Assembly: GCA_963824995.1 (NCBI GenBank)
Contig: CAWGRK010000006.1
Coordinates: 68,273 to 132,272, forward strand
Direction of reading: 5' to 3'
DNA length: 64,000 nucleotides
Source: an uncultured Actinomycetes bacterium
GTDB taxonomy: Bacteria > Actinomycetota > Acidimicrobiia > Spongiisociales > DATADW01
The stretch's first letter is position 1. Every line of letters begins with the position of its first letter. Under the pieces are notes generated by a model. That model had not been told where the DNA came from. It ran no database searches and worked only from the letters and a program-made list of their open reading frames with translations. Shown piece by piece: positions 16,586 to 28,618 of this stretch. The position numbers were made by a program, and so were the translations under genes.

Positions 16586-18191
16586 GTGCTCGACGAGCTT
16601 TCGGTTCGCAACCTGGGCATCATCTCGACGGCCCGGCTCGAGCCCGGGCCTGGGTTGGTGGTGGTGTCCGGTGAGACTGGAGCGGGCAAGACGCTTCTGC
16701 TCGGCGCTTTGCGACTGCTCTGCGGAGAGACCGCACGCCCTGACCTGATCGGTCCCGATGGCGACGAGACGAGCGTGGACGCCCGCTTCTTCCGCGGCGA
16801 CGAGGAGTTCACGGTCACCCGGCAACTGCTCCGTGGCGGACGCAGCAGGGCATACCTCGACGGCGCGCCGGTTCCAGCCCGGGTCCTCGTCGACCGTATC
16901 GGGGGCATGGTCGAGGTCGTCGGTCAGCACGATCAACAGTCGCTGAGCAGACCGGCTGAGGTGCGCGCCGTGTTGGACCGACTGCTCGACGATGCCGGGA
17001 GGCGAGCACGCGACGGCTACCGGGCCGCCTGGGACAGGGTGCAATCGCTCTCGAGAGAGAGCGCTGGGCTGGGAGGCGGGAGAGAGACGGTGGAGCGCGA
17101 TGCCGCCCTGGCGAGGTTCCAGGCGGCGGAGATCGCCGGCGCCGGGTTCGTCGCCGGGGAAGACGCAGAACTGGAGCAGAGGCTGAGCCGGCTCCGCCAC
17201 CTCGGAGAGTTGACCGAGCGACTCGCTACGGCCCACGCCGCCGCCACCCGAGCAGGCGACACCATCGGCGAGGTTGTTGCGGTGATGAGGCGAGCGGCGA
17301 CGCTCGACGGGTCGTTCGAGCCGCTGGCGAAGCGGGCCGAGGAGTCCCAGGCGGTGACTGGCGACCTCACCGTCGAGTTGCGCGCCGCCGCATATGCCCT
17401 CGAGGACGATCCTGCGCAGCTTGCGGCGTTGGAGGAGCGGTTTGCCTTGCTCGGCTCGCTCCGCCGGAAATACGGAGCCACACTCGAGGAAATCCTTGCC
17501 TTCGGCGAGGAGTCCGCTGCCCGAGCCGACGAGTTGGAGCGGATGCTCTCGAGGGCGGGGGAGGTCGAGAGTGAATCGGCCCAAGCCGGTCATGACCTGG
17601 AACGCCGTGGCTCCCGGCTGCGACAGAGCCGTGCCGCAGCGGGAGGTCGGCTGGCCGAGTCGGCGCGGGACCATCTCCGCACAGCTCGGGTTCAGCGACC
17701 CCCACCTCGAAGTCGATATATCACCGGCCAAGCCAGGTCCGGATGGTGCTGAAACGATCCGATTGCTCTTCGCCTCCGACCGGCGCCTCACGCCCAACGA
17801 AGTGGGACGCGTCGCCTCGGGTGGGGAACTGAGCCGGCTGATCCTGGCCCTCCGTCTCGCCGGCGGAGCAGGTCGCTCCCCTGTGGTCGCATTCGACGAG
17901 GTGGACGCAGGCGTGGGTGGGACTACGGCGCTGGCTCTCGGCGCAAAGCTGGCCGAGCTGGCAGCGGACCGTCAGGTGCTCTGCGTGACCCATCTGCCGC
18001 AGGTCGCCGCCTTCGCCGACACCCATGCCGTGGTGCGGCGCGACGGGCCGTCGGCGACTGTCGAGGTGGTCGAGGGAAAAGAGCGACTCGAGGAGTTGAG
18101 CCGCATGCTTTCCGGGCTCCCCGAGAGCGAGCGGGGCAGGGAGCACGCCGGGGAACTGCTCGCCATCGCAGCCGCCGGTTCGGCCGGCTGA
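16586..18191 (+). pseudogene. recN: DNA repair protein RecN, one apparent frameshift near 17674-17690
   Basis: N-terminus LDELSVRNLGIISTARLEPGPGLVVVSGETGAGKT (ORF 16586..17752). C-terminus with SGGELSRL and FDEVDAGVGG in ORF 17394..18191. Confidence 0.85.
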
Positions 18192-19212: not shown

Positions 19213-20815
19213 GTGGCCCACTCTGTCCATCTGACCCCGCTGACACCGCTGTCCTTCCTGGGTCGGAGCAGCGCGGTCTTCCCCGAGAAGACGGCCATCA
19301 TCCACGGCACCCGCCAAATCAGCTATCTGGAGATGGCGCAATCGGCCACCCGGCTTGCCCATGCCCTCAAAGCCAGCGGGTTCGAACCGGGTGACCGGGT
19401 CGCATATCTCTGCCCCAACATCCCCGAGCTTCTGGTGGCTCACTTCGGGGTGCCTCTTGCGGGGGCGGTTCTGGTGGCGATCAACACCCGGCTCTCCTCC
19501 GAGGAGATCCGTTACATCATCGGTCACTCGGGTTCGCGGTTGCTCGTTGTCGACTCCCAACTCGCCTCTCTGATCGAGCCGATACGAGATGATCTGGAAG
19601 GGATCGATGAGATCGTGACGGTGGACGACACCGGGGACGGGGCGGCGCTTCGGGCGACGGACTTCGCCGAGTTCATCGCCAGGGGAGGCGACGAGCCGAT
19701 CGATTGGTCCGTCGACGACGAGGACCGCACCATCTCGATCAACTACACAAGCGGGACCACGGGAAGGCCCAAAGGTGTCATGTACACCCACAGGGGGGCC
19801 TATCTCAATGCACTCGCCGAGGTGATCCACTCACGCCACACGACCGAGTCGGTCTACCTCTGGACCCTGCCCATGTTCCACTGCAACGGATGGTGTACAA
19901 CCTGGGGGGTGACCGCTATCGGCGGGACCCACGTGTGCCTTCGGGCGGTTAGTCCCTCCGAGGTGTGGCGGTTGCTCGAGGAGGAGGGCATCACTCATCT
20001 CAACGCCGCTCCCACAGTTCTCATATCGCTGGCGAACGCCGACGAAGCACGCCCGCTGACGTCACCGCTGGTGGTCACCACCGCCGGCGCCCCGCCCAGC
20101 CCGACCTTGATCGCCCAGATGAGCGCTCTGGGCGCCGAGATGGTCCACGTCTACGGGCTCACCGAGACCTACGGCCCGTACACCGTGTGCCAGGAACAGC
20201 CCGGGTGGGATCGCCTCGACCCGGCGGAACGCGCCGCGTCTGATGGCCCGCCAGGGGGTGGCGATGATCTCGGCGGAACCGATCCGGGTGGTGGATGACG
20301 AGATGGGCGACGTCCCCCGAGACGGGTCGACCATCGGCGAAGTGGTTATGCGGGGCAACAACGTCATGAAGGGCTACTTCGACGACCCGGAAGCCACCGA
20401 TACCGCCTTCCGCGGTGGTTGGTTCCACTCCGGCGACCTCGGCGTATGGCACCCCGACGGTTACATCGAGCTGAGGGATCGAGCCAAGGACATCATCATC
20501 TCGGGTGGGGAGAACATTTCGACCATCGAGGTCGAACAGGCTCTGGTGAGCCACCCCGCAGTCCTCGAGGTCGCCGTGGTCTCGGTGCCAGACGACTACT
20601 GGGGGGAGCGCCCCAAAGCTTTCGTCGTGCTCAAGTCGGGGACCGAGGTGACCGAAGACGAGTTGATCGGACACGTCCGTCAGCGGATCGCCAAGTTCAA
20701 GGCACCGGATCAGTTCGAGTTCCTCACCGCCTTGCCAAAGACCTCGACAGGGAAGATCCAGAAGTACGTTCTGCGGGACAAGGAGTGGGCTGGGAGAACC
20801 AGCCGAATCAACTGA
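19213..20815 (+). pseudogene. AMP-dependent acyl-CoA synthetase/ligase, one apparent frameshift near 20236
   Basis: AMP-binding motif YTSGTTGRPKGV, YGLTETYGP. C-terminal part (ARQGV...GWFHSGDLG...GGENIS...PKTSTGKIQK) continues in ORF 20243..20815. Confidence 0.8.
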
Positions 20816-20826
20816 GCGGGGAAGAC

Positions 20827-22251
20827 ATGGGCGCACCGGGCCCGGATGTCGGAACTGATCGGGGCGAGATCGAGGCCCGCGAGGCTCGGCATCAGCTCGA
20901 CCTCGACAGGATCAGAGGACACTTCGACTTTGTCGGACGCGGACGGATAGTCACCAACAACGCCGCCACCACCCAGTCGCCGCGGCAACTGATCGAGTTG
21001 CTGGCCGAATTGGTCCCCGGGTACGAGAGCGTCCACCGGGGCAGGTCCACCGCCTCGCGGGCGATGACCGACCTTTTCGAGAGCGCATACGACACCATCG
21101 CCCAGTGGATCAACGCTCCGAGCAGGCGGAACATCGCCATCTACCGGAACACGACCGAGGCGCACAACGCGGTGATGTACTCGATGCTCACCGATTTCCG
21201 CGATGGTGACAACGTCGTTACCACGAGGTTGGAACACAACTCCAACTACGTGCCCTGGTACGGGATGACCAAGGAGATCCTCGAACCGCTGGGGCGGCAT
21301 GTCGAATACCGCCTGGTGGACTTCGATCCCGCCACCGGTGAGCTCGATCTCGACCACATGGCACGCCTGGTCGACAGTCGGACCAAGTTGGTTTGCTGTA
21401 CCGGAGCCTCCAACTTCCTTGGGACCAAACCGCCGCTCTCCGACATCCGGGCGATCGCCGATGGCAGCGGATACGAGCAACCCGATGGCCGGATCCGGTC
21501 GCTGCTGTTGGTTGACGGGGCCCAACTGGTGCCGAGCAGCCCGGTGGACGTCACCGCCCTCGACGTCGACTGGCTGTCGTTCTCCTTTCACAAGATCCTG
21601 GCGCCATTCGGGGTCGGGGTCCTATACGGGCGGGAGGACCTCATTGCGCGTTCGCGGCCGTTCCTCTATGGCGGCGACATGATCGCCGACGGTGGTGTCT
21701 GGGACGACCGGATCGAGTACGCCGACCTCCCCTGGCGATCGGCAGCGGGGACTCCCGCTGTCCTCGAGGTGATCGTGTCGGCGCAGGCGCTCCGCCTGCT
21801 GGTGGACTTCGTGAGAGGGCCGGACGCCGAGCCCTACTTCCGCACCGAGAGGCCGCTGGACCGATCGACCGTTGAAGATGTGATGTGCTCGGTCCGTGCC
21901 CACACCAGGCTGCTCACCACCCACGCCATGACGAGACTGGCAGACGTGAGCGGGATCACAATCTACGGCCCTCCGGCCGGCTGTGACCGCTCCCCGCTGG
22001 TCGCTTTCAACGTGGAAGGTTGGAGCCCATACGACCTGGCCGACGGACTCGACAGTCAAGGCATCGAGAGCCGTGCCGGGTGCCACTGTGCATCTCTCGC
22101 CCACAGATGGCTCGGGCTTGCCCCACAGGCAACCTGCCGGTTGAGCTTCGCTCTCTACAACAACTTGGGGGACGTCGATCGGGCGGTGGATGCCCTGTGC
22201 CGACTGATAGAGGCCGGCCCCCCCTCGAACGGACCTCCCCGGGCCGGTTAG
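20827..22251 (+). CDS. Class-V aminotransferase-fold PLP enzyme (cysteine desulfurase-like)
   Basis: ATG 20827, 12 nt after the synthetase stop. PLP-lysine context SFSFHKILAPFGVGVLYG. C-terminal RAGCHCAS resembles the SufS/CsdA GHHCA active-site Cys loop. Confidence 0.8.
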   Translation: MGAPGPDVGTDRGEIEAREARHQLDLDRIRGHFDFVGRGRIVTNNAATTQSPRQLIELLAELVPGYESVHRGRSTASRAMTDLFESAYDTIAQWINAPSRRNIAIYRNTTEAHNAVMYSMLTDFRDGDNVVTTRLEHNSNYVPWYGMTKEILEPLGRHVEYRLVDFDPATGELDLDHMARLVDSRTKLVCCTGASNFLGTKPPLSDIRAIADGSGYEQPDGRIRSLLLVDGAQLVPSSPVDVTALDVDWLSFSFHKILAPFGVGVLYGREDLIARSRPFLYGGDMIADGGVWDDRIEYADLPWRSAAGTPAVLEVIVSAQALRLLVDFVRGPDAEPYFRTERPLDRSTVEDVMCSVRAHTRLLTTHAMTRLADVSGITIYGPPAGCDRSPLVAFNVEGWSPYDLADGLDSQGIESRAGCHCASLAHRWLGLAPQATCRLSFALYNNLGDVDRAVDALCRLIEAGPPSNGPPRAG

Positions 22252-22283
22252 CCTCGGCGGAGGATCGATTCGAGGAGGACGAG

Positions 22284-22532
22284 ATGACCAGCGAAGACCA
22301 GTCGCTGCGCGACGAGGACATCCAGACCGTGACCGGCGGGATCCCAACCCCGGAGCAGGACGATGCCGACGGGGTGGACGGCACAGACGCCGATGGTGTT
22401 GACGGCACCGATGCCGACGGCGTTGACGGTGTGGACGGCACCGACGCCGATGGTGTTGACGGAGTCGATGGCACCGACGCCGATGGCGTTGACGGGACCG
22501 ACAGTGACGGCGTAGACGGGACCGACGAGTAG
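22284..22532 (+). CDS. 82-aa Asp/Gly-rich tandem-repeat peptide with double-glycine-type leader (candidate precursor peptide)
   Basis: GAGGAGGA RBS at 22272-22279, spacer CGAG, then ATG 22284. Sequence: MTSEDQSLRDEDIQTVTGG / IPTPEQD / six DADGVDG(VDG)T repeats (the last is DSDGVDGT) / DE. Repeat copies differ almost only at synonymous third positions. Confidence 0.6.
   Translation: MTSEDQSLRDEDIQTVTGGIPTPEQDDADGVDGTDADGVDGTDADGVDGVDGTDADGVDGVDGTDADGVDGTDSDGVDGTDE
22359..22526 (+). repeat. In-frame 24/33-nt tandem repeats encoding DADGVDGT / DADGVDGVDGT
   Basis: Six units read directly from the sequence. GAC/GAT, GGN, GTN and ACA/ACC vary between units while the amino acids are kept. Confidence 0.9.
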
Positions 22533-22558
22533 CACCAACGACTGACCCCGCCCCGTCG

Positions 22559-23713
22559 ATGAAAGAAGCGCCCGACGCCGGCCTCGAGCGCTGCGTTGGC
22601 GATACAACCACCTTCGCCACCGAGATCTGGGGGCAGCGTCCCCTCCTGTACCGGTCGGGCGAGGGGTTCGCCGACCTGCTGTCGCTCGACGACGTGGACC
22701 ATCTGATCTCATCGGCGGGCTTGCGTCTCCCCGCCTTCCGACTGGTGCGGCAAGGGACGATCATCGCTCCCAGCGCCTACACAAAGACGACCCGGACCGG
22801 ATCTCAGACGGCCACCGGTGTGGCCGACGCCGCGGCAGTGTTCGCCCACTTCGACCGGGGGGCGACGATCGTGCTCCAGGGGATGCACCGCTACTGGTTG
22901 CCTGTCGCCAGATTCGCCCGCAACTTGGAAGCCACACTCGGCCACCCGGTTCAGGTCAACGCCTACATCACGCCGCCCGGTTCACAGGGGTTCGATGCCC
23001 ACATGGACGACCACGACGTATTCGTGCTCCAGAGCGACGGCAGCAAGCGGTGGGTGGTGCACGAGCGGCACGACCTGCCCCCGGCCCAAGGAGCGCTGGT
23101 CGAGGTGGACCTGGAACCGGGCGACAGCCTCTACATCCCGAAGAATTTCCCACACTCAGCAGCCACCCAGGACAAAGCGTCCGTTCACCTCACGGTCGGG
23201 ATCCTCACCCTCGGCACCAAGGACGTCCTCGACGCGGTGGTCTCGCTGCTCCAAACCGATGGGGAACTCGACGACCCACTGCCACTGCGATTCGCCGATG
23301 ATGCCCAGGCATTGAGTGCGATGTTGGACGAGAGCCTGGAGCGGGTCGCCGAACTCGTGGCGAAGATCGACAGGAAGGCCGTCGGGGGTCGGCTGCAACG
23401 CCGCTTCCTCACGACCCGTCAGCCGCTGCTCTCCGGTCAGATGAGACGATTGCTCGATCTCGATCAAGTCACCGAACGATCCTTGGTGGGGGTGAGGCAG
23501 GGCGCGCTCTGCCTCCTCCAGGTGGAAGGTGACGCGCTTGCAGTGTTGCTCGGGGACCGCGAGCTCCGTATGCCGGCATGGTTAGGGCCCGTCATGGATG
23601 AGGTAGTGGAGCGCGGTGAGCTCCGGGTCGACGAGATCGATCTGGATGCCGAGAGCCGCCTGGTGCTGGTCAGGAGGCTGATCAAGGAAGGCCTGCTCGA
23701 GGTGCGCGGTTGA
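22559..23713 (+). CDS. JmjC / cupin_4-family Fe(II)/2-oxoglutarate oxygenase-like protein
   Basis: 384 aa. Resembles YcfD/RoxA-type ribosomal oxygenases. Candidate HxD in GFDAHMDDHDVFVLQSDGSKRW and distal His in IPKNFPHSAAT, plus a C-terminal helical/winged-helix-like region. Confidence 0.7.
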   Translation: MKEAPDAGLERCVGDTTTFATEIWGQRPLLYRSGEGFADLLSLDDVDHLISSAGLRLPAFRLVRQGTIIAPSAYTKTTRTGSQTATGVADAAAVFAHFDRGATIVLQGMHRYWLPVARFARNLEATLGHPVQVNAYITPPGSQGFDAHMDDHDVFVLQSDGSKRWVVHERHDLPPAQGALVEVDLEPGDSLYIPKNFPHSAATQDKASVHLTVGILTLGTKDVLDAVVSLLQTDGELDDPLPLRFADDAQALSAMLDESLERVAELVAKIDRKAVGGRLQRRFLTTRQPLLSGQMRRLLDLDQVTERSLVGVRQGALCLLQVEGDALAVLLGDRELRMPAWLGPVMDEVVERGELRVDEIDLDAESRLVLVRRLIKEGLLEVRG

Positions 23714-24597
23714 CCGCGAACCGGTTCCGTTGCTCGGAGGCGAACCGGGAAGAACCGCTCTTCGCCACCGCATCGACCGTCACCGGCTGGATCGCAATCG
23801 AGCAGCCAGGCCCGTGGGGCCCCGAAGCGCTGTTAGAAAGCCGGTTCCCACTGGACGTGGCGATCGAGTTGGAGCGGCGCACCACGGCCCACGGTGTCCG
23901 GCCGCTGCTCATCCGGCGCGGTGGCCACGACCCCGGCGAGCGGGCCATGTTCCTCGCATTCAGCGGCGGAGCCGGCAAAGGACCCGCCATGGTGCGGCGC
24001 CCCTTGGCAACTCCCGAGGCCGTGCTCGATGTCGATCTGGCGGCGCTCGCCGCCGGTGACATCGAGGGGTTCAGCGAGCACCAACCGCTGTTTCTGGTCT
24101 GCACCCACGGGCGGCACGACATCTGCTGTGCCGACCGGGGTAGGCCGTTGTACCGGGCGGCGGCTGCGGTGCTCCCCGACAGGGTGTGGGAGACGTCGCA
24201 CATCGGGGGAGACCGGTTTGCGGGCAATCTGCTCGTCCTGCCTCACGGGGCCTACTTCGGGCGAGTTCAGCCCGAGGATGCCTCCCGGCTCATCGAGTCG
24301 TTCGAGCTTGGCCGGCTCGAAATGGACCTCTACCGAGGTCGGAGCACGATGCACCGCATCGCGCAAGCTGCCGACCACTTCGTCCGCACCCACTTCGAAT
24401 GGACCGGAATAGAAGATGTCGAGGTGGTCGCGTTCACGAGGCTCTCGTCTGGATCCGCAGAAGCGCTGACGCGCGGCCCGGCGGGGGAGGAAGTCGCAGT
24501 CAGGGTCGAATATCGGAGCGCACCGGAGGAGTCGATGCTCACCTGCCGGGCGCCGCACCCCGCACGGCCGCCGGTGTTCTCCGTCGTCATCCCCTGA
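23710..24597 (+). CDS. Sucrase/ferredoxin-like (thioredoxin-like [2Fe-2S]) family protein
   Basis: TTG 23710 (4-nt overlap with the previous stop). LFLVCTHGRHDICCADRG ... SHIGGDRFAGN, which matches Cx8C plus an HxGG(H/D) motif of Apd1/Aim32-type proteins. Confidence 0.65.
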   Translation: MTANRFRCSEANREEPLFATASTVTGWIAIEQPGPWGPEALLESRFPLDVAIELERRTTAHGVRPLLIRRGGHDPGERAMFLAFSGGAGKGPAMVRRPLATPEAVLDVDLAALAAGDIEGFSEHQPLFLVCTHGRHDICCADRGRPLYRAAAAVLPDRVWETSHIGGDRFAGNLLVLPHGAYFGRVQPEDASRLIESFELGRLEMDLYRGRSTMHRIAQAADHFVRTHFEWTGIEDVEVVAFTRLSSGSAEALTRGPAGEEVAVRVEYRSAPEESMLTCRAPHPARPPVFSVVIP

Positions 24598-24598
24598 A

Positions 24599-26848
24599 TC
24601 AGGCGGGGAACACCTCGACGACCGCGTTGTAGTCGGGGATCCTCGCCTCGGGATCGCGCACGCCCGGCGCCAGCAGCACGTTGGCTTCCGGCCAGAATGC
24701 CTGGACGTTCCCGGGCCGGATCCGCCCACTCCTGGCCACGGCATCCATCTCGCCGTGAGCGGAGCGGACCGTGACCGGCGCGCCGTCGGTGAGCCCGAGA
24801 CCTTCGAGATCGGTCGCAGCCATCAACACGTCGTGGCGGTTCATCCCGGTGAGGGGATCCCGCTCTGCGAACACCATCGTGTTGAACTGCTTACCGCGCC
24901 TGGTGGATAGCCGGAACCGCCCCGGCTCGGGCGGGGGTGGTGGTCGGACCACGGCGAAGTGGGCTTTGCCGTCCGGGGTGGGGAACAGACCTCCCTCACC
25001 GAGGCGCTCGCCACCCCATTGCACGTTGTCACCAAGCTCGGCGAGACCCTCCACTCCCTGGTAGCTGGGCACGACCCGGGCAATCTCGGCGCGGATGTCC
25101 TCGCCCGATGCGAACTCGATGAGGTGCGAGCGGGCCGGATCGACGCGTCTGGCCAGGTCGAGGAAGATCTCCCACTCGGTGCGCGCCGCCCCCACCGGAG
25201 GCACGATCTGGGGGCCGAAGACCACTCTCCGCTCGGTCGTGGTCTCGGTGCCCCCGTCCCGCTGCTCGTAGCGGGTGGCCGCGGGCAAGAGCACCACCTC
25301 GTCGGCGGGGTCGAGCAGCATCTGAGTGGTGACGACGATGTCCTGGTGGACGCGCAGCGGGACCCGTTCCAGAGCCTCTCTCACCTGGTACGGGTCGGGG
25401 AGCACCTCGAGGAAATTCCCCCCGCACGAGTAGAGGATGTCGATCTCTCCACGATGGGCGGCCTCGACCATCTCGGCGGCGCTCAGCCCGGGTGTCGGTG
25501 GGACGGCGAACCCGTAATCGGCTGACAGCCGGCCCGCCGATGCCGGGTCGAGAGGGATGCCGCCGGGGAGCGAGGTGGCATAGGCACCCATCTCGGCGCC
25601 ACCTTGGACCCCGGAGTGACCGCGGATCGGCATCAGCCCCGCACCGGCGCGGCCGATGTTTCCTCGAGAAAGCGCCAGATTGACGATGGCGCGAACGTTG
25701 TCCGACCCGAACACATGCTGGGTCACGCCCATCGACCAGATGAGGATGGCGGACCGGGCCTTCCCGTAGACCTCGGCAAAACGCTCCATCTCCACCCGGG
25801 TCGATCCCGAGGCACGCTCGAGATCCTCCCAATCGGCCGCTTCGATGTCGGCTCGAAGTTCGAGCCATCCCTCCGTGTGATCGGAGATGAAGTCGAGGTC
25901 CACGGTGCCTTGGGCCAGCATCGCCTTGAGCACACCGGAGACGAATGCGATGTCGCCCCCGGTGTGGACCGGGAAGAACTCGTCGGTCATGCGGGTCCCG
26001 AATAGGGCGCTCTCCGGGTTGGAGGGGACCCAGTACCGCTCGAGCGCAGGCTCGCGGAAGGGGTTGACCACGACGACGCGCAACCCCTTCTTCCGAGCAA
26101 GGTAGAGGTACTTCATCATCACCGGTTGGGCGTTGGCGACGTGGCTGCCGAAGAGGACGACCAAATCTGCTTCGAAGAGGTCGCGGTACGAGACGGTGGT
26201 CGCCCCGAAGCCGATCGATCCTTTGAGCGCCATTGTCGAAGGCGCATGGCAGACCCTCGCCGCATTGTCGATGTTGGGTGATCCGAGGAAACGCACGAAC
26301 TTCTGGGCCACGTAATAGGTCTCGTTGGTCAGGCCCCTCGACGTGAGGTAGAGGGCGAACCTTGACGGGTCGGTATCCCTCAGGCGGCCGGCGATCAGAT
26401 CGAGCGCCTCGCCCCAGGTCACCCGATGGAATCCTGGTTCGCCGCGGCTCCTCACCATGGGATGCGCCAACCGACCCAGATCGCGTAGGTTCCTTCCTGA
26501 CTTCTTCCTCAGGAGGGACGCATCGCCGAGGGTCGCCGGGTCGAGCGGTCCCATGGTGTTTAGCCGGAGGAGGTTGAGCCGGATGGTGCACAGGTGGACG
26601 CCGTCGATCGTCCAGTCGTGGAGCCCAGCGGTGCCAAGGGCACACCCGTCACAGACTCCCTTGGTCAGGATCGTCCAGGCGCGGGGAAGCGAATCGCGGT
26701 TGTCCCAGACGGTCCGGAAGATCTCCCCGTAGTGGTTGGGTTTGACCTCCCCGACGCCGTTCGGCCTCCACCCGGCCCACAGGTCAGGGCGCACTCTGCG
26801 ACGCTGCGGCGATGCACCGGCCATGGAGTCACGGTACCGCCGGTCCAT
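24599..26848 (-). CDS. Molybdopterin oxidoreductase, FdhF/YdeP family
   Basis: ORF 24599..27139. Start placed at ATG 26848 or 26824 because the extension upstream is low-complexity. GVCDGCALG Cys cluster and molybdopterin-binding domains. Convergent with the preceding operon. Confidence 0.8.
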   Translation of the reverse strand: MDRRYRDSMAGASPQRRRVRPDLWAGWRPNGVGEVKPNHYGEIFRTVWDNRDSLPRAWTILTKGVCDGCALGTAGLHDWTIDGVHLCTIRLNLLRLNTMGPLDPATLGDASLLRKKSGRNLRDLGRLAHPMVRSRGEPGFHRVTWGEALDLIAGRLRDTDPSRFALYLTSRGLTNETYYVAQKFVRFLGSPNIDNAARVCHAPSTMALKGSIGFGATTVSYRDLFEADLVVLFGSHVANAQPVMMKYLYLARKKGLRVVVVNPFREPALERYWVPSNPESALFGTRMTDEFFPVHTGGDIAFVSGVLKAMLAQGTVDLDFISDHTEGWLELRADIEAADWEDLERASGSTRVEMERFAEVYGKARSAILIWSMGVTQHVFGSDNVRAIVNLALSRGNIGRAGAGLMPIRGHSGVQGGAEMGAYATSLPGGIPLDPASAGRLSADYGFAVPPTPGLSAAEMVEAAHRGEIDILYSCGGNFLEVLPDPYQVREALERVPLRVHQDIVVTTQMLLDPADEVVLLPAATRYEQRDGGTETTTERRVVFGPQIVPPVGAARTEWEIFLDLARRVDPARSHLIEFASGEDIRAEIARVVPSYQGVEGLAELGDNVQWGGERLGEGGLFPTPDGKAHFAVVRPPPPPEPGRFRLSTRRGKQFNTMVFAERDPLTGMNRHDVLMAATDLEGLGLTDGAPVTVRSAHGEMDAVARSGRIRPGNVQAFWPEANVLLAPGVRDPEARIPDYNAVVEVFPA

Positions 26849-26971
26849 ACGCTGGGGGAGTCCTGTGAGGTTCGGCCGCCCGCTGCTACGCTGGCCTCCC
26901 GTGATGAGCCGCCTGCTGCGCTCCCGGGATTTCACCTCTCCTCGGCGCACGCCAAGCCTTGAGGAGGATCG

Positions 26972-28618
26972 ATGAGCAAGCACGTTTTCGTCACCGGTGG
27001 TGTGGTCTCCTCCCTGGGCAAGGGGATAACCGCGGCATCGCTCGGCCGGCTGCTCAAGGCACGCGGGCTGAGGGTGGTCAACCAGAAGCTCGACCCCTAC
27101 ATCAACGTCGACCCGGGGACCATGAACCCGTTCCAGCACGGCGAGGTCTTCGTCACCGACGACGGTGGCGAGACCGACCTGGACCTAGGTCACTACGAGC
27201 GGTTCACAGGTGAGAACTTGCGTCGAACCTCGAACGTCACCACCGGCTCGGTGTACCAGACCGTGATCCAGAAGGAGCGGCGCGGCGACTACCTGGGAGA
27301 CACCGTCCAGGTGATCCCCCACGTCACCAACGAGATCAAGACCAGGATCCGCCGGCTCGGCGACCCGGAGGTGGACGTGGTCATCACCGAGGTGGGTGGG
27401 ACCGTCGGTGACATCGAGAGCCTCCCGTTCCTCGAGGCCATTCGCCAACTGCGCAAGGACCTCGGGAAGGCGAACACCGTCTACATCCACGTCACCCTCG
27501 TCCCCTTCATCGGGTCCTCCGAGGAGCTCAAGACCAAGCCGACCCAGCACTCGGTCGCCGAATTGCGAAGCAGGGGGATCCAGCCCGACGTGATCGTCGT
27601 GCGGTCGGACCGACCCATCGACGAGGGTGTGCGGCGCAAGATCAGCCTCTTCTGCGATGTGGACCCGAGCGCGGTGATCAACGCCACAGACGTCAAGGAC
27701 ATCTACGAGGTCCCGCTTGTGCTCAACCAGGGTGGGCTCGACCAGGTGGTCTGCGACACGCTCGAGCTCTCGACACCCGAGCCCGATCTGGACGACTGGG
27801 AGAAGATGGTGCACCGTACAGCCGTCGCCGGCGACGCGGTCACCATCGGCGTGGTGGGCAAGTACGTAGATCTGCCCGACGCCTATCTCTCGGTGGTCGA
27901 GGCCCTGCGGCACGGAGCGAACGCGAACGACGTGAGGCTCGACCTGCGCTGGGTCCCCTCCGACGACACGGTCGGGTTGCTCGCCATGACCAACCTCGAC
28001 GACCTCGACGGGATCCTCGTCCCCGGTGGTTTCGGGGTGAGGGGGATCGAGGGCAAGGTGCAGGCGGTCCGGTTCGCCCGCGAACAGGACATCCCCTTTC
28101 TCGGTTTGTGCCTCGGGCTCCAATGCGCCGTCATCGAGTTCGCCCGGTCGCAGCTCCATCTCCCCGACGCCAACAGCTCCGAGTTCGATCCCACCACCGC
28201 CCACCCGGTGATCGATCTCATGGAGAGCCAGCAGTCGGTGGACGAGATGGGCGGCACGATGCGACTGGGGCTGTACCCGGCGGCGCTCGAGGACGGGTCC
28301 CTCGCCCGGCGGCTCTACGGCAAGGAGTTGATCTACGAACGACACCGGCACCGATTCGAGGTCAACAACCGCTATCGCGCCGACCTCGAGCAGGCCGGCA
28401 TGCGGCTGTCGGGTCTGGCACCAGACGATTCGTTGGTGGAGATCATCGAGCTGCCCGGGCACCCCTTCTTCATCGCCAGCCAGTTCCATCCCGAGTTCAA
28501 GTCACGGCCCGACCGGTCGCATCCGCTGTTCGCTGGTTTCGTCGGCGCTGCGGCGGAGAGGCGGCGCGCCGCTACCGGACAGGTTCCGGTCGAGGCACCC
28601 CTGGTCGAGCTGGGTTGA
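26972..28618 (+). CDS. pyrG: CTP synthase
   Basis: 548 aa. [19 protein letters not shown]..., glutamine amidotransferase domain GLCLGLQ. GAGGAGGA RBS. Confidence 0.95.

Follow-up and report, generated by a model that had tools for sequence, protein, structure and literature searches.

A conserved three-gene cassette of Actinomycetota pairs an aspartate-rich repeat peptide with a ribosomal-oxygenase-type JmjC enzyme and a Suc_Fer-like protein: a candidate RiPP-like modification system

The DNA analyzed here (the window) is a stretch of 64,000 nt, ~66% GC, from an uncultured member of the Acidimicrobiia (assembly GCA_963824995.1, contig CAWGRK010000006.1, positions 68,273 to 132,272), and its feature of interest is a group of four closely spaced open reading frames (ORFs) on the + strand. 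At 20827–22251 lies a gene for a SufS-like class-V pyridoxal 5'-phosphate (PLP) enzyme; at 22284–22532, a gene for a precursor-like peptide of 82 aa; at 22559–23713, a gene for a JmjC Fe(II)/2-oxoglutarate (2OG) oxygenase of the ribosomal oxygenase (ROX) type (384 aa; hereafter, the cupin); and at 23710–24597, a gene with a TTG start for a Suc_Fer-like protein (295 aa) of the thioredoxin-like ferredoxin family. The first two gaps measure 32 nt and 26 nt; the last gene begins before the cupin gene ends, overlapping its stop by 4 nt. A preliminary description, made from the letters of the sequence, had regarded all four genes as an operon for a product resembling a peptide that is made on ribosomes and modified after translation (RiPP); its coordinates and spacings were reproduced, and the motifs that it named were all found (SFSFHK and RAGCHCAS in the PLP enzyme; AHMDD and FPHSA in the cupin; CTHGRHDICC, a Cx8C arrangement, and SHIGGD in the Suc_Fer-like protein). 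In profile searches, Pfam assigns Aminotran_5, JmjC_2, and Suc_Fer-like to the three larger proteins, and the 82-aa ORF matches nothing.

Relatives were collected by a scan with a cupin alignment, one genome per species, which matched at least 583 places; 80 of these loci were analyzed. They derive from Acidimicrobiia, Nocardioides, Micropruina, Aeromicrobium, Halosaccharopolyspora, Sporichthyaceae, and other Actinomycetota, representing several orders and including cultured strains such as Nocardioides soli DSM 105498 and Halosaccharopolyspora lacisalsi DSM 45975, with cupin identities from 41% to 77%. A Suc_Fer-like gene is located directly downstream of the cupin gene in 78 of the 80 loci (tblastn with the window proteins), and wherever a locus includes upstream DNA, there is nearly always an ORF of 52–126 aa that stops no more than a few dozen nt from the start of the cupin gene, often overlapping it. 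All-against-all clustering of 4230 ORFs of ≥90 aa, taken from ±7 kb around the 80 cupin genes, gave only the cupin and the Suc_Fer-like protein as near-universal clusters, plus their antisense shadows; no other cluster exceeds 13 loci, the count for an ABC ATPase cluster on mixed strands, and the remainder reflect lineage-specific synteny (methyltransferase, hut genes, LuxR regulator, and scattered ABC ATPases). In the reverse direction, three look-ups starting from peptide homologues recovered the order peptide, JmjC_2, Suc_Fer-like in five of five places. Because only the cupin and Suc_Fer-like clusters, together with the upstream peptide ORF, recur across loci, the conserved functional unit consists of three genes, not four, in which a short precursor-like gene adjoins, and is co-oriented with, the cupin gene across taxa. 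The cupin of this clade is accordingly not a lone gene, and its association with a short Asp-repeat ORF and a Suc_Fer-like gene, which the preliminary description had suggested looking for, extends across Actinomycetota.

The proposed operon therefore stands for the peptide, cupin, and Suc_Fer-like genes, and not for the SufS-like gene, which the survey rules out as a member of the cassette. The SufS-like protein (Aminotran_5, E = 1e-79) carries the PLP lysine motif and the catalytic Cys loop, and scores 291 bits against the NCBIfam model for SufS, under the cut-off of 475 bits. It adjoins the cassette in 3 of 81 loci (counting the window), namely in the window and in L001 and L017, the two loci most closely related to it, and these three have the entire block RecN-ECH-ACS-SufS-peptide-cupin-SucFer-Fdh-PyrG in common; the gene upstream of the cassette encodes an ACT-domain protein in the next clade and a LuxR-type regulator in Nocardioides. 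Since it is found only in this one syntenic block, the adjacency of the SufS-like gene is local synteny, and the gene is a neighbor of the cassette in this lineage only. A different lineage-specific arrangement was seen in two other loci (L088 and L091; 3546–4885, 7327–9320), where the cassette is flanked upstream by a divergent DUF4234 protein and a class I methyltransferase, and downstream by a GH25 lysozyme-like protein; the same arrangement appeared in three contexts looked up, all of one lineage.

An ORF the size of the peptide gene means nothing by itself in this DNA, 12 kb of which contain 78 ORFs of ≥60 aa. The gene is preceded by a ribosome-binding site (22270–22283, + strand) with the Shine–Dalgarno sequence GAGGAGG 6 nt upstream of the start, and this is kept in orthologous loci, where GAGGAG or AGGAGG precedes the start. 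The encoded peptide begins with a head that includes the motif LRDEDIQT (residues 8–15), continues through a short Pro/Gly linker, and ends in an Asp-rich repeat tail of DADGVDGT units. After seven shortened or frameshifted cases were set aside, 73 peptides were analyzed, and all 73 contain, some eight residues into the chain, the motif L-x-D-[ED]-[DE]-[IM]-x-T (L in 70, D in 72, and T in 69 of the peptides); behind it come a Pro/Gly/Ala linker and an Asp-rich tail, usually with the unit DxDG[TV]D. The peptide is thus bipartite in the manner of a precursor: a conserved, leader-like head would serve for recognition, and it is followed by a core that varies in both repeat unit and copy number. 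Between six co-linear orthologues, codon differences are predominantly synonymous (12:0, and 13–29 synonymous vs. 3–12 non-synonymous; overall 12–29 vs. 0–12), and among the repeats of the window itself, third codon positions vary and the amino acids are kept. A profile built from 25 peptides matched at least 930 database clusters of proteins of 72–148 aa, which are called hypothetical proteins where they are named at all, and none of which has a Pfam domain; likewise, neither the 82-aa peptide nor a set of four representative peptides had a match in Pfam or NCBIfam even at E = 10. Because synonymous changes exceed non-synonymous ones, and because the Shine–Dalgarno sequence and the homologues upstream of the cupin gene are conserved, the small ORF is a real gene; the preliminary description had named lack of conservation as a finding that would count against its proposal, and purifying selection together with the universal motif shows the opposite.

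The repeat array makes up the 3' two thirds of the peptide gene (22359–22529, + strand), and is an imperfect tandem array (Tandem Repeats Finder periods of 24, 33, and 57) encoding ~7 DxDG[VT]D units. Asp accounts for approximately one third of the window core, which has no Cys, His, Lys, or aromatic residues. Across the 73 peptides, the sequence after the head motif is composed principally of Asp (33%), Thr (17%), Gly (17%), Ser (10%), and Ala (10%), with almost no Lys, Arg, His, aromatic, or Cys residues. The unit DxDG[TVSIA]D occurs 0–9 times per peptide (median 4; at least twice in 64 of the 73), and some clades use other tail units (TADTTD, DSSDSDDK, DPDxTD), such that periodic Asp is the only universal feature of the core. 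The DxDGxD units presumably resemble the Ca-binding Asp loops of thrombospondin type 3 repeats and EF-hand-like sequences (DxDxDG), although no curated repeat model of these kinds matched the four representative peptides at E values up to 10. There is no signal peptide in the precursor, the N-terminus being acidic, and the product is therefore presumably cytoplasmic, unless it is exported by unlinked genes.

In Nocardioides-type loci (L046, L062, L069, L071, L074, and L075; named Nocardioides strains and related metagenome-assembled genomes, MAGs), the peptide start is preceded at ~40–110 nt by a common promoter-like block, with the arrangement GGGTAC ... CTTGTG/C ... about 17 nt ... CAGCAGACT. 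This block suggests a dedicated promoter.

The cupin belongs to JmjC_2 (PF08007), with E = 6e-24 and 84.5 bits against a cut-off of 22, and has no model in NCBIfam. In a sequence search of the PDB, its best matches are the ribosomal oxygenases NO66 (2e-15), MINA53 (5e-13), and YcfD (3e-10), followed by YxbC (1e-3). The Fe/2OG site is intact: the metal triad H148/D150/H199, which the preliminary description had called intact-looking, and a putative 2OG-binding residue, K163, are invariant in 22 homologues; H148-x-D150, K163, and H199 align with the HxD of NO66, the Lys 15 residues later, and the distal His, which we take to be H340/D342/K355/H405 of that enzyme, with K355 binding 2OG. In an AlphaFold2 (AF2) model of the cupin (mean predicted local distance difference test score, pLDDT, 83.8), a JmjC barrel is followed by a helical middle domain and then by the C-terminal domain. 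Searched with Foldseek at full length, the model matches NO66 best (E = 7e-24, TM-score 0.63, ~448 columns), then MINA53, YcfD, and a YcfD-like enzyme of Rhodothermus; the JmjC enzymes FIH and JMJD5 are matched far more weakly (FIH, E ~1e-7, TM-score 0.36). The cupin hence has the three-domain architecture of ROX enzymes: JmjC domain, helical dimerization domain, and winged-helix-like C-terminal domain. The preliminary description had proposed the last of these as a possible leader-recognition element; the full-length alignment with NO66, MINA53, and YcfD shows that it is part of the standard ROX layout and no special addition.

The C-terminal domain (residues ~306–384; 23474–23710, + strand) is nevertheless a candidate leader-binding module, as judged by its invariant alignment columns. 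It contains the longest invariant stretches outside the catalytic site (GDRELRMP and RLVLVRRLIxEGLLE), including several invariant Arg residues, which would fit as a complement to the acidic head motif of the peptide, and its secondary structure in the AF2 model is beta-beta-beta-beta-alpha-beta-alpha-beta. For the enzyme as a whole, the genomic linkage to the peptide argues for a substrate other than a ribosomal protein.

The Suc_Fer-like protein scores 78.6 bits with PF06999 (cut-off 34.9; E = 8e-22), over profile positions 94–191 only, and NCBIfam has no model for it. Among 25 aligned homologues, the candidate metal ligands C8, C131, H133, H136, C139, C140, H164, and D168 are invariant, and C279 is nearly so; the conserved motifs are CTHGRHDxCC and SHxGGDRFAxN. 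The Apd1/Aim32 prototypes of the family use CX8C...HX3H to hold a bis-His [2Fe-2S] cluster (PMC8482512). The cassette protein has the Cx8C part in common with them (C131...C140), but in all 25 homologues the second His is replaced by Asp (H164-x-G-G-D168), so that HxGGD stands in place of the HxGGH bis-His motif. It further differs from Apd1/Aim32 in the additional invariant residues C8, H133, H136, and C139, in the nearly invariant C279, and in its divergent N-terminal 120 residues, which lie outside the Pfam model. Its AF2 model has a low confidence (pLDDT 67), which drops furthest in the loops that carry the ligands, and a Foldseek search with this model returned non-significant matches only (best, a complex I subunit labeled V2, E = 0.2), as did a PDB sequence search (an Aquifex [2Fe-2S] ferredoxin, E = 0.67). 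The protein probably binds a metal or a cluster. Two Actinomycetota MAG loci with peptides resembling the Nocardioides type (L051, 5719–6518; L078, 5810–6489) encode a second Suc_Fer-like copy directly upstream of the peptide gene, besides the one after the cupin gene.

The cupin also has more distant relatives, found by tblastn against plasmids, with ~30% identity in Streptomyces and its relatives, and several of these are located in recognizable RiPP clusters, consistent with the RiPP-like character that the preliminary description had ascribed to the system. In two loci (L082, 1195–7143; L083, 1593–9033), the distant cupins are part of thiazole/oxazole-modified microcin (TOMM)/thiopeptide-type and YcaO-TfuA (thioamide-type) clusters that include a methyltransferase and a carbamoyltransferase; one distant cupin follows a TOMM leader-binding protein and a thiopeptide-type dehydratase, others are beside YcaO/TfuA or beside S9 and M13 peptidases. 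On plasmid pSCL4 of S. clavuligerus (L081, 5769–9116), a 48-aa Asp/Pro-rich ORF, MDDKKTSLEPDEIEVIPPVSTPDFVIADNDPSDPPIAIADPDPFDPVI, occurs just upstream of a cupin of ~30% identity; its head motif, SLEPDEIEV, resembles that of the cassette peptides, its core is rich in Asp, and genes for an S9 peptidase and an ABC transporter are close by. This pSCL4-type cluster, annotated merely as a hypothetical protein and a cupin, looks like a related RiPP-like cluster.

Among characterized enzymes, the cassette cupin is closest to the ROX group (E. coli YcfD/RoxA, human NO66, MINA53), which has the same fold, domain order, HxD...H triad, and 2OG-binding Lys, and which hydroxylates protein side chains at C-3. 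The identity to these enzymes is only ~18–22%, and we know of no ROX enzyme with strict linkage to an acidic repeat peptide and a Suc_Fer-like gene; furthermore, the likely substrate in the cassette would be a polyanionic peptide, in contrast to the basic ribosomal proteins that ROX enzymes modify, namely L16 at Arg81, Rpl8 at His216, or Rpl27a at His39. Asp residues of peptides and proteins undergo Fe/2OG-dependent beta-hydroxylation by the Asp/Asn beta-hydroxylases FIH (itself a JmjC enzyme), AspH, and CinX, which gives metal-binding erythro- or threo-3-hydroxy-Asp. None of these three is closely related in sequence to the cupin, and their substrates are modified at single sites, whereas the cassette peptide has many repeats in its tail.

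Hydroxylation of RiPP precursors by JmjC enzymes has precedent in BipG, which acts on ornithine in the biphenomycin pathway (PMC12707348), and in CzlI, a Phe hydroxylase of the curacozole pathway (PMC11575548, where CinX of cinnamycin is also named); JmjC proteins of PF08007 with domains resembling the RiPP recognition element (RRE), or fused to an RRE, have likewise been noted in RiPP-like contexts (PMC12710340). As in the cassette, BipG and CzlI are JmjC Fe/2OG enzymes encoded beside a ribosomal precursor peptide. In their clusters, however, numerous further maturation enzymes are encoded along with a protease and a transporter, whereas the cassette is minimal, with three genes, and is distinguished by its repeat core, by a probably different target residue, and by its thioredoxin-like Fe-S-type partner. 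Methanobactins and bufferins are also small ribosomal peptides, which iron-dependent oxidases convert into metal binders (PMC12710340, reference 73); in these, MNIO/DUF692 enzymes act on Cys, with signal peptides or exporters, whereas the cassette has a JmjC enzyme, and no Cys, signal peptide, or conserved exporter. Literature searches found no paper on the peptide or the cassette, and neither is represented by a Pfam or NCBIfam model, in agreement with the preliminary description, whose author knew of no RiPP class with this enzyme set. Although JmjC action on ribosomal peptides is known, no curated model and no paper in the library searched describes the precursor family, its core of Asp repeats, the minimal arrangement of three genes, or the obligate Suc_Fer-like partner.

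From these data we infer, with a probability of roughly 0.6, a peptide-modification system in which the cupin reads the head motif of the peptide and hydroxylates its repeat tail repeatedly, most likely at the beta-carbon of Asp, with the Suc_Fer-like protein as a redox or metal partner. A peptide substrate is the most economical assumption because relatives of the cupin occur in RiPP clusters and because JmjC enzymes that act on such precursors are known. The first gene would provide a cytoplasmic precursor-like peptide with a short invariant N-terminal motif and an Asp-rich tail of variable length. The oxygenase would bind the head motif, probably via its conserved C-terminal domain, and would hydroxylate the tail many times; the Asp C-beta is the most probable site, since C-3 is where known ROX- and FIH-type JmjC enzymes hydroxylate and no residue other than Asp is common to all cores, and beta-hydroxy-Asp in the peptide tail is therefore a reasonable guess. 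The Suc_Fer-like protein might keep the iron of the oxygenase reduced, or might act on the product after metal has been loaded. This peptide would be polyanionic and would chelate metals, and it would be intracellular unless exported by unlinked genes. More speculatively, a ribosomally encoded poly-(beta-hydroxy-aspartate) peptide could serve as an intracellular metallophore or as an iron or calcium buffer, with its many alpha-hydroxy-carboxylate ligands installed by a ROX-type JmjC enzyme and with the Suc_Fer-like protein loading or reductively unloading the metal; we regard this specific function as unlikely, although it would represent a new RiPP-like class and a new physiological role, in bacteria, for the ribosomal-oxygenase family as well as the Apd1/Aim32 family.

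Several observations weigh against repeated hydroxylation of the peptide as the function of the cassette. Within ±7 kb, the ORF clustering of the 80 loci found no conserved peptidase, exporter, or regulator, unlike most RiPP clusters, and the lack of the first two speaks against a secreted RiPP of the classical kind; a peptidase and an exporter had already been reported as not visible in the window. Consensus scans of 74 upstream regions for IdeR, Zur, and Fur sites found essentially nothing, and so lend no regulatory support to a metal role. The nearest characterized enzymes hydroxylate ribosomal proteins rather than peptides; the cupin is acidic overall (isoelectric point 5.1), and so not obviously suited to a polyanionic substrate; and its C-terminal domain has no match in Pfam, or in a profile search of the PDB, that would identify it as an RRE, which has a beta3-alpha3 fold, or as a winged helix-turn-helix. 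The case for the peptide as substrate, rather than as partner, is itself indirect. On the side of the Suc_Fer-like protein, the bis-His motif is altered as described above, and its strict linkage to the cupin is the least explained feature of the system, given that 2OG oxygenases need no ferredoxin or other external reductant.

One alternative is that the cupin is a hydroxylase of ribosomal or other proteins, similar to YcfD/RoxA or NO66, and that the peptide is not its substrate but its partner, docking by the head motif as a regulator, as a pseudo-substrate or inhibitor, as a chaperone for a basic substrate, or as an Fe2+/Ca2+ buffer. Such a partnership is supported by the sequence and fold searches, whose best matches are ribosomal oxygenases of identical three-domain architecture, and by the acidic, low-complexity character of the peptide, which is like that of many regulators and metal buffers, and the lack of a conserved protease or exporter would fit an intracellular protein partner. 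We nevertheless consider it rather improbable, because the gene order, the frequent start/stop overlap, and the combination of conserved head and variable tail are the layout of a precursor–enzyme pair; because distant relatives of the cupin occur in RiPP clusters beside short peptides, one of which has a similar motif; and because identity to known ROX enzymes is only ~20%. Less probable again is a sensor of oxygen, redox, or iron status, in which O2-dependent hydroxylation of the head motif (e.g., of its invariant Asp or Thr) would switch an acidic protein, with the Fe-S protein as redox input. Within the peptide, conservation is far higher in the head motif than in the tail, JmjC hydroxylases such as FIH are oxygen sensors that modify Asn/Asp within defined motifs, and a conserved Cys/His-rich partner protein is present; however, Asp periodicity is always kept as the repeat number varies, which suggests a functional tail, the cassette contains no DNA-binding or signaling domain, and the IdeR, Zur, and Fur scans found essentially no regulator box upstream.

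Two further explanations concern the extent of the system and the reality of its smallest gene. If all four genes formed an operon, the SufS-like enzyme could supply the sulfur with which the peptide is thio-modified, or specifically that of the Fe-S cluster which the Suc_Fer-like protein probably needs; the common strand, the 32-nt gap, and the intact PLP lysine and catalytic Cys loop accord with this role. It is very unlikely, however, as the SufS-like gene adjoins the cassette in a single syntenic block of three loci, with ACT-domain or LuxR-type genes in its place in other lineages, and as the peptide core has no Cys or obvious sulfur acceptor. Finally, the small ORF might have arisen by chance, as a reading frame of a GC-rich tandem repeat that lies between genes and is non-coding; high-GC DNA yields many spurious ORFs, and the repeat is open in its remaining frames and on the complementary strand as well. 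This was considered and can practically be discarded: the Shine–Dalgarno sequence is conserved, the non-repetitive N-terminal motif is kept in one frame only, synonymous to non-synonymous differences reach 12:0, and genes are called independently in the at least 930 peptide clusters.

If the cassette does modify its peptide, Actinomycetota would harbor a widespread, unannotated peptide-modification system (at least 583 places; at least 930 peptide clusters). Bacterial ROX-type JmjC oxygenases would gain a non-ribosomal substrate, and the RiPP repertoire a repeat, poly-Asp type of precursor; the Suc_Fer-like (Apd1/Aim32) family, so far enigmatic, would be tied to a definite partner at the genetic level. 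As a minimal three-gene cassette that is present in cultured strains, the system is directly accessible to experiment.

Three neighboring genes of the window have irregular ORFs. Upstream of the SufS-like gene, RecN (16586–18191) and an acyl-CoA synthetase (19213–20815) are each split into two overlapping ORFs on the + strand by an apparent frameshift; these splits may be indel errors of long-read assembly, or pseudogenes. Downstream of the cassette, the ORF for a formate-dehydrogenase-like molybdopterin oxidoreductase (24599–27139, − strand) overlaps the start of pyrG (26972–28618, + strand) by 168 nt when its longest start is used, and its true start is probably further downstream.

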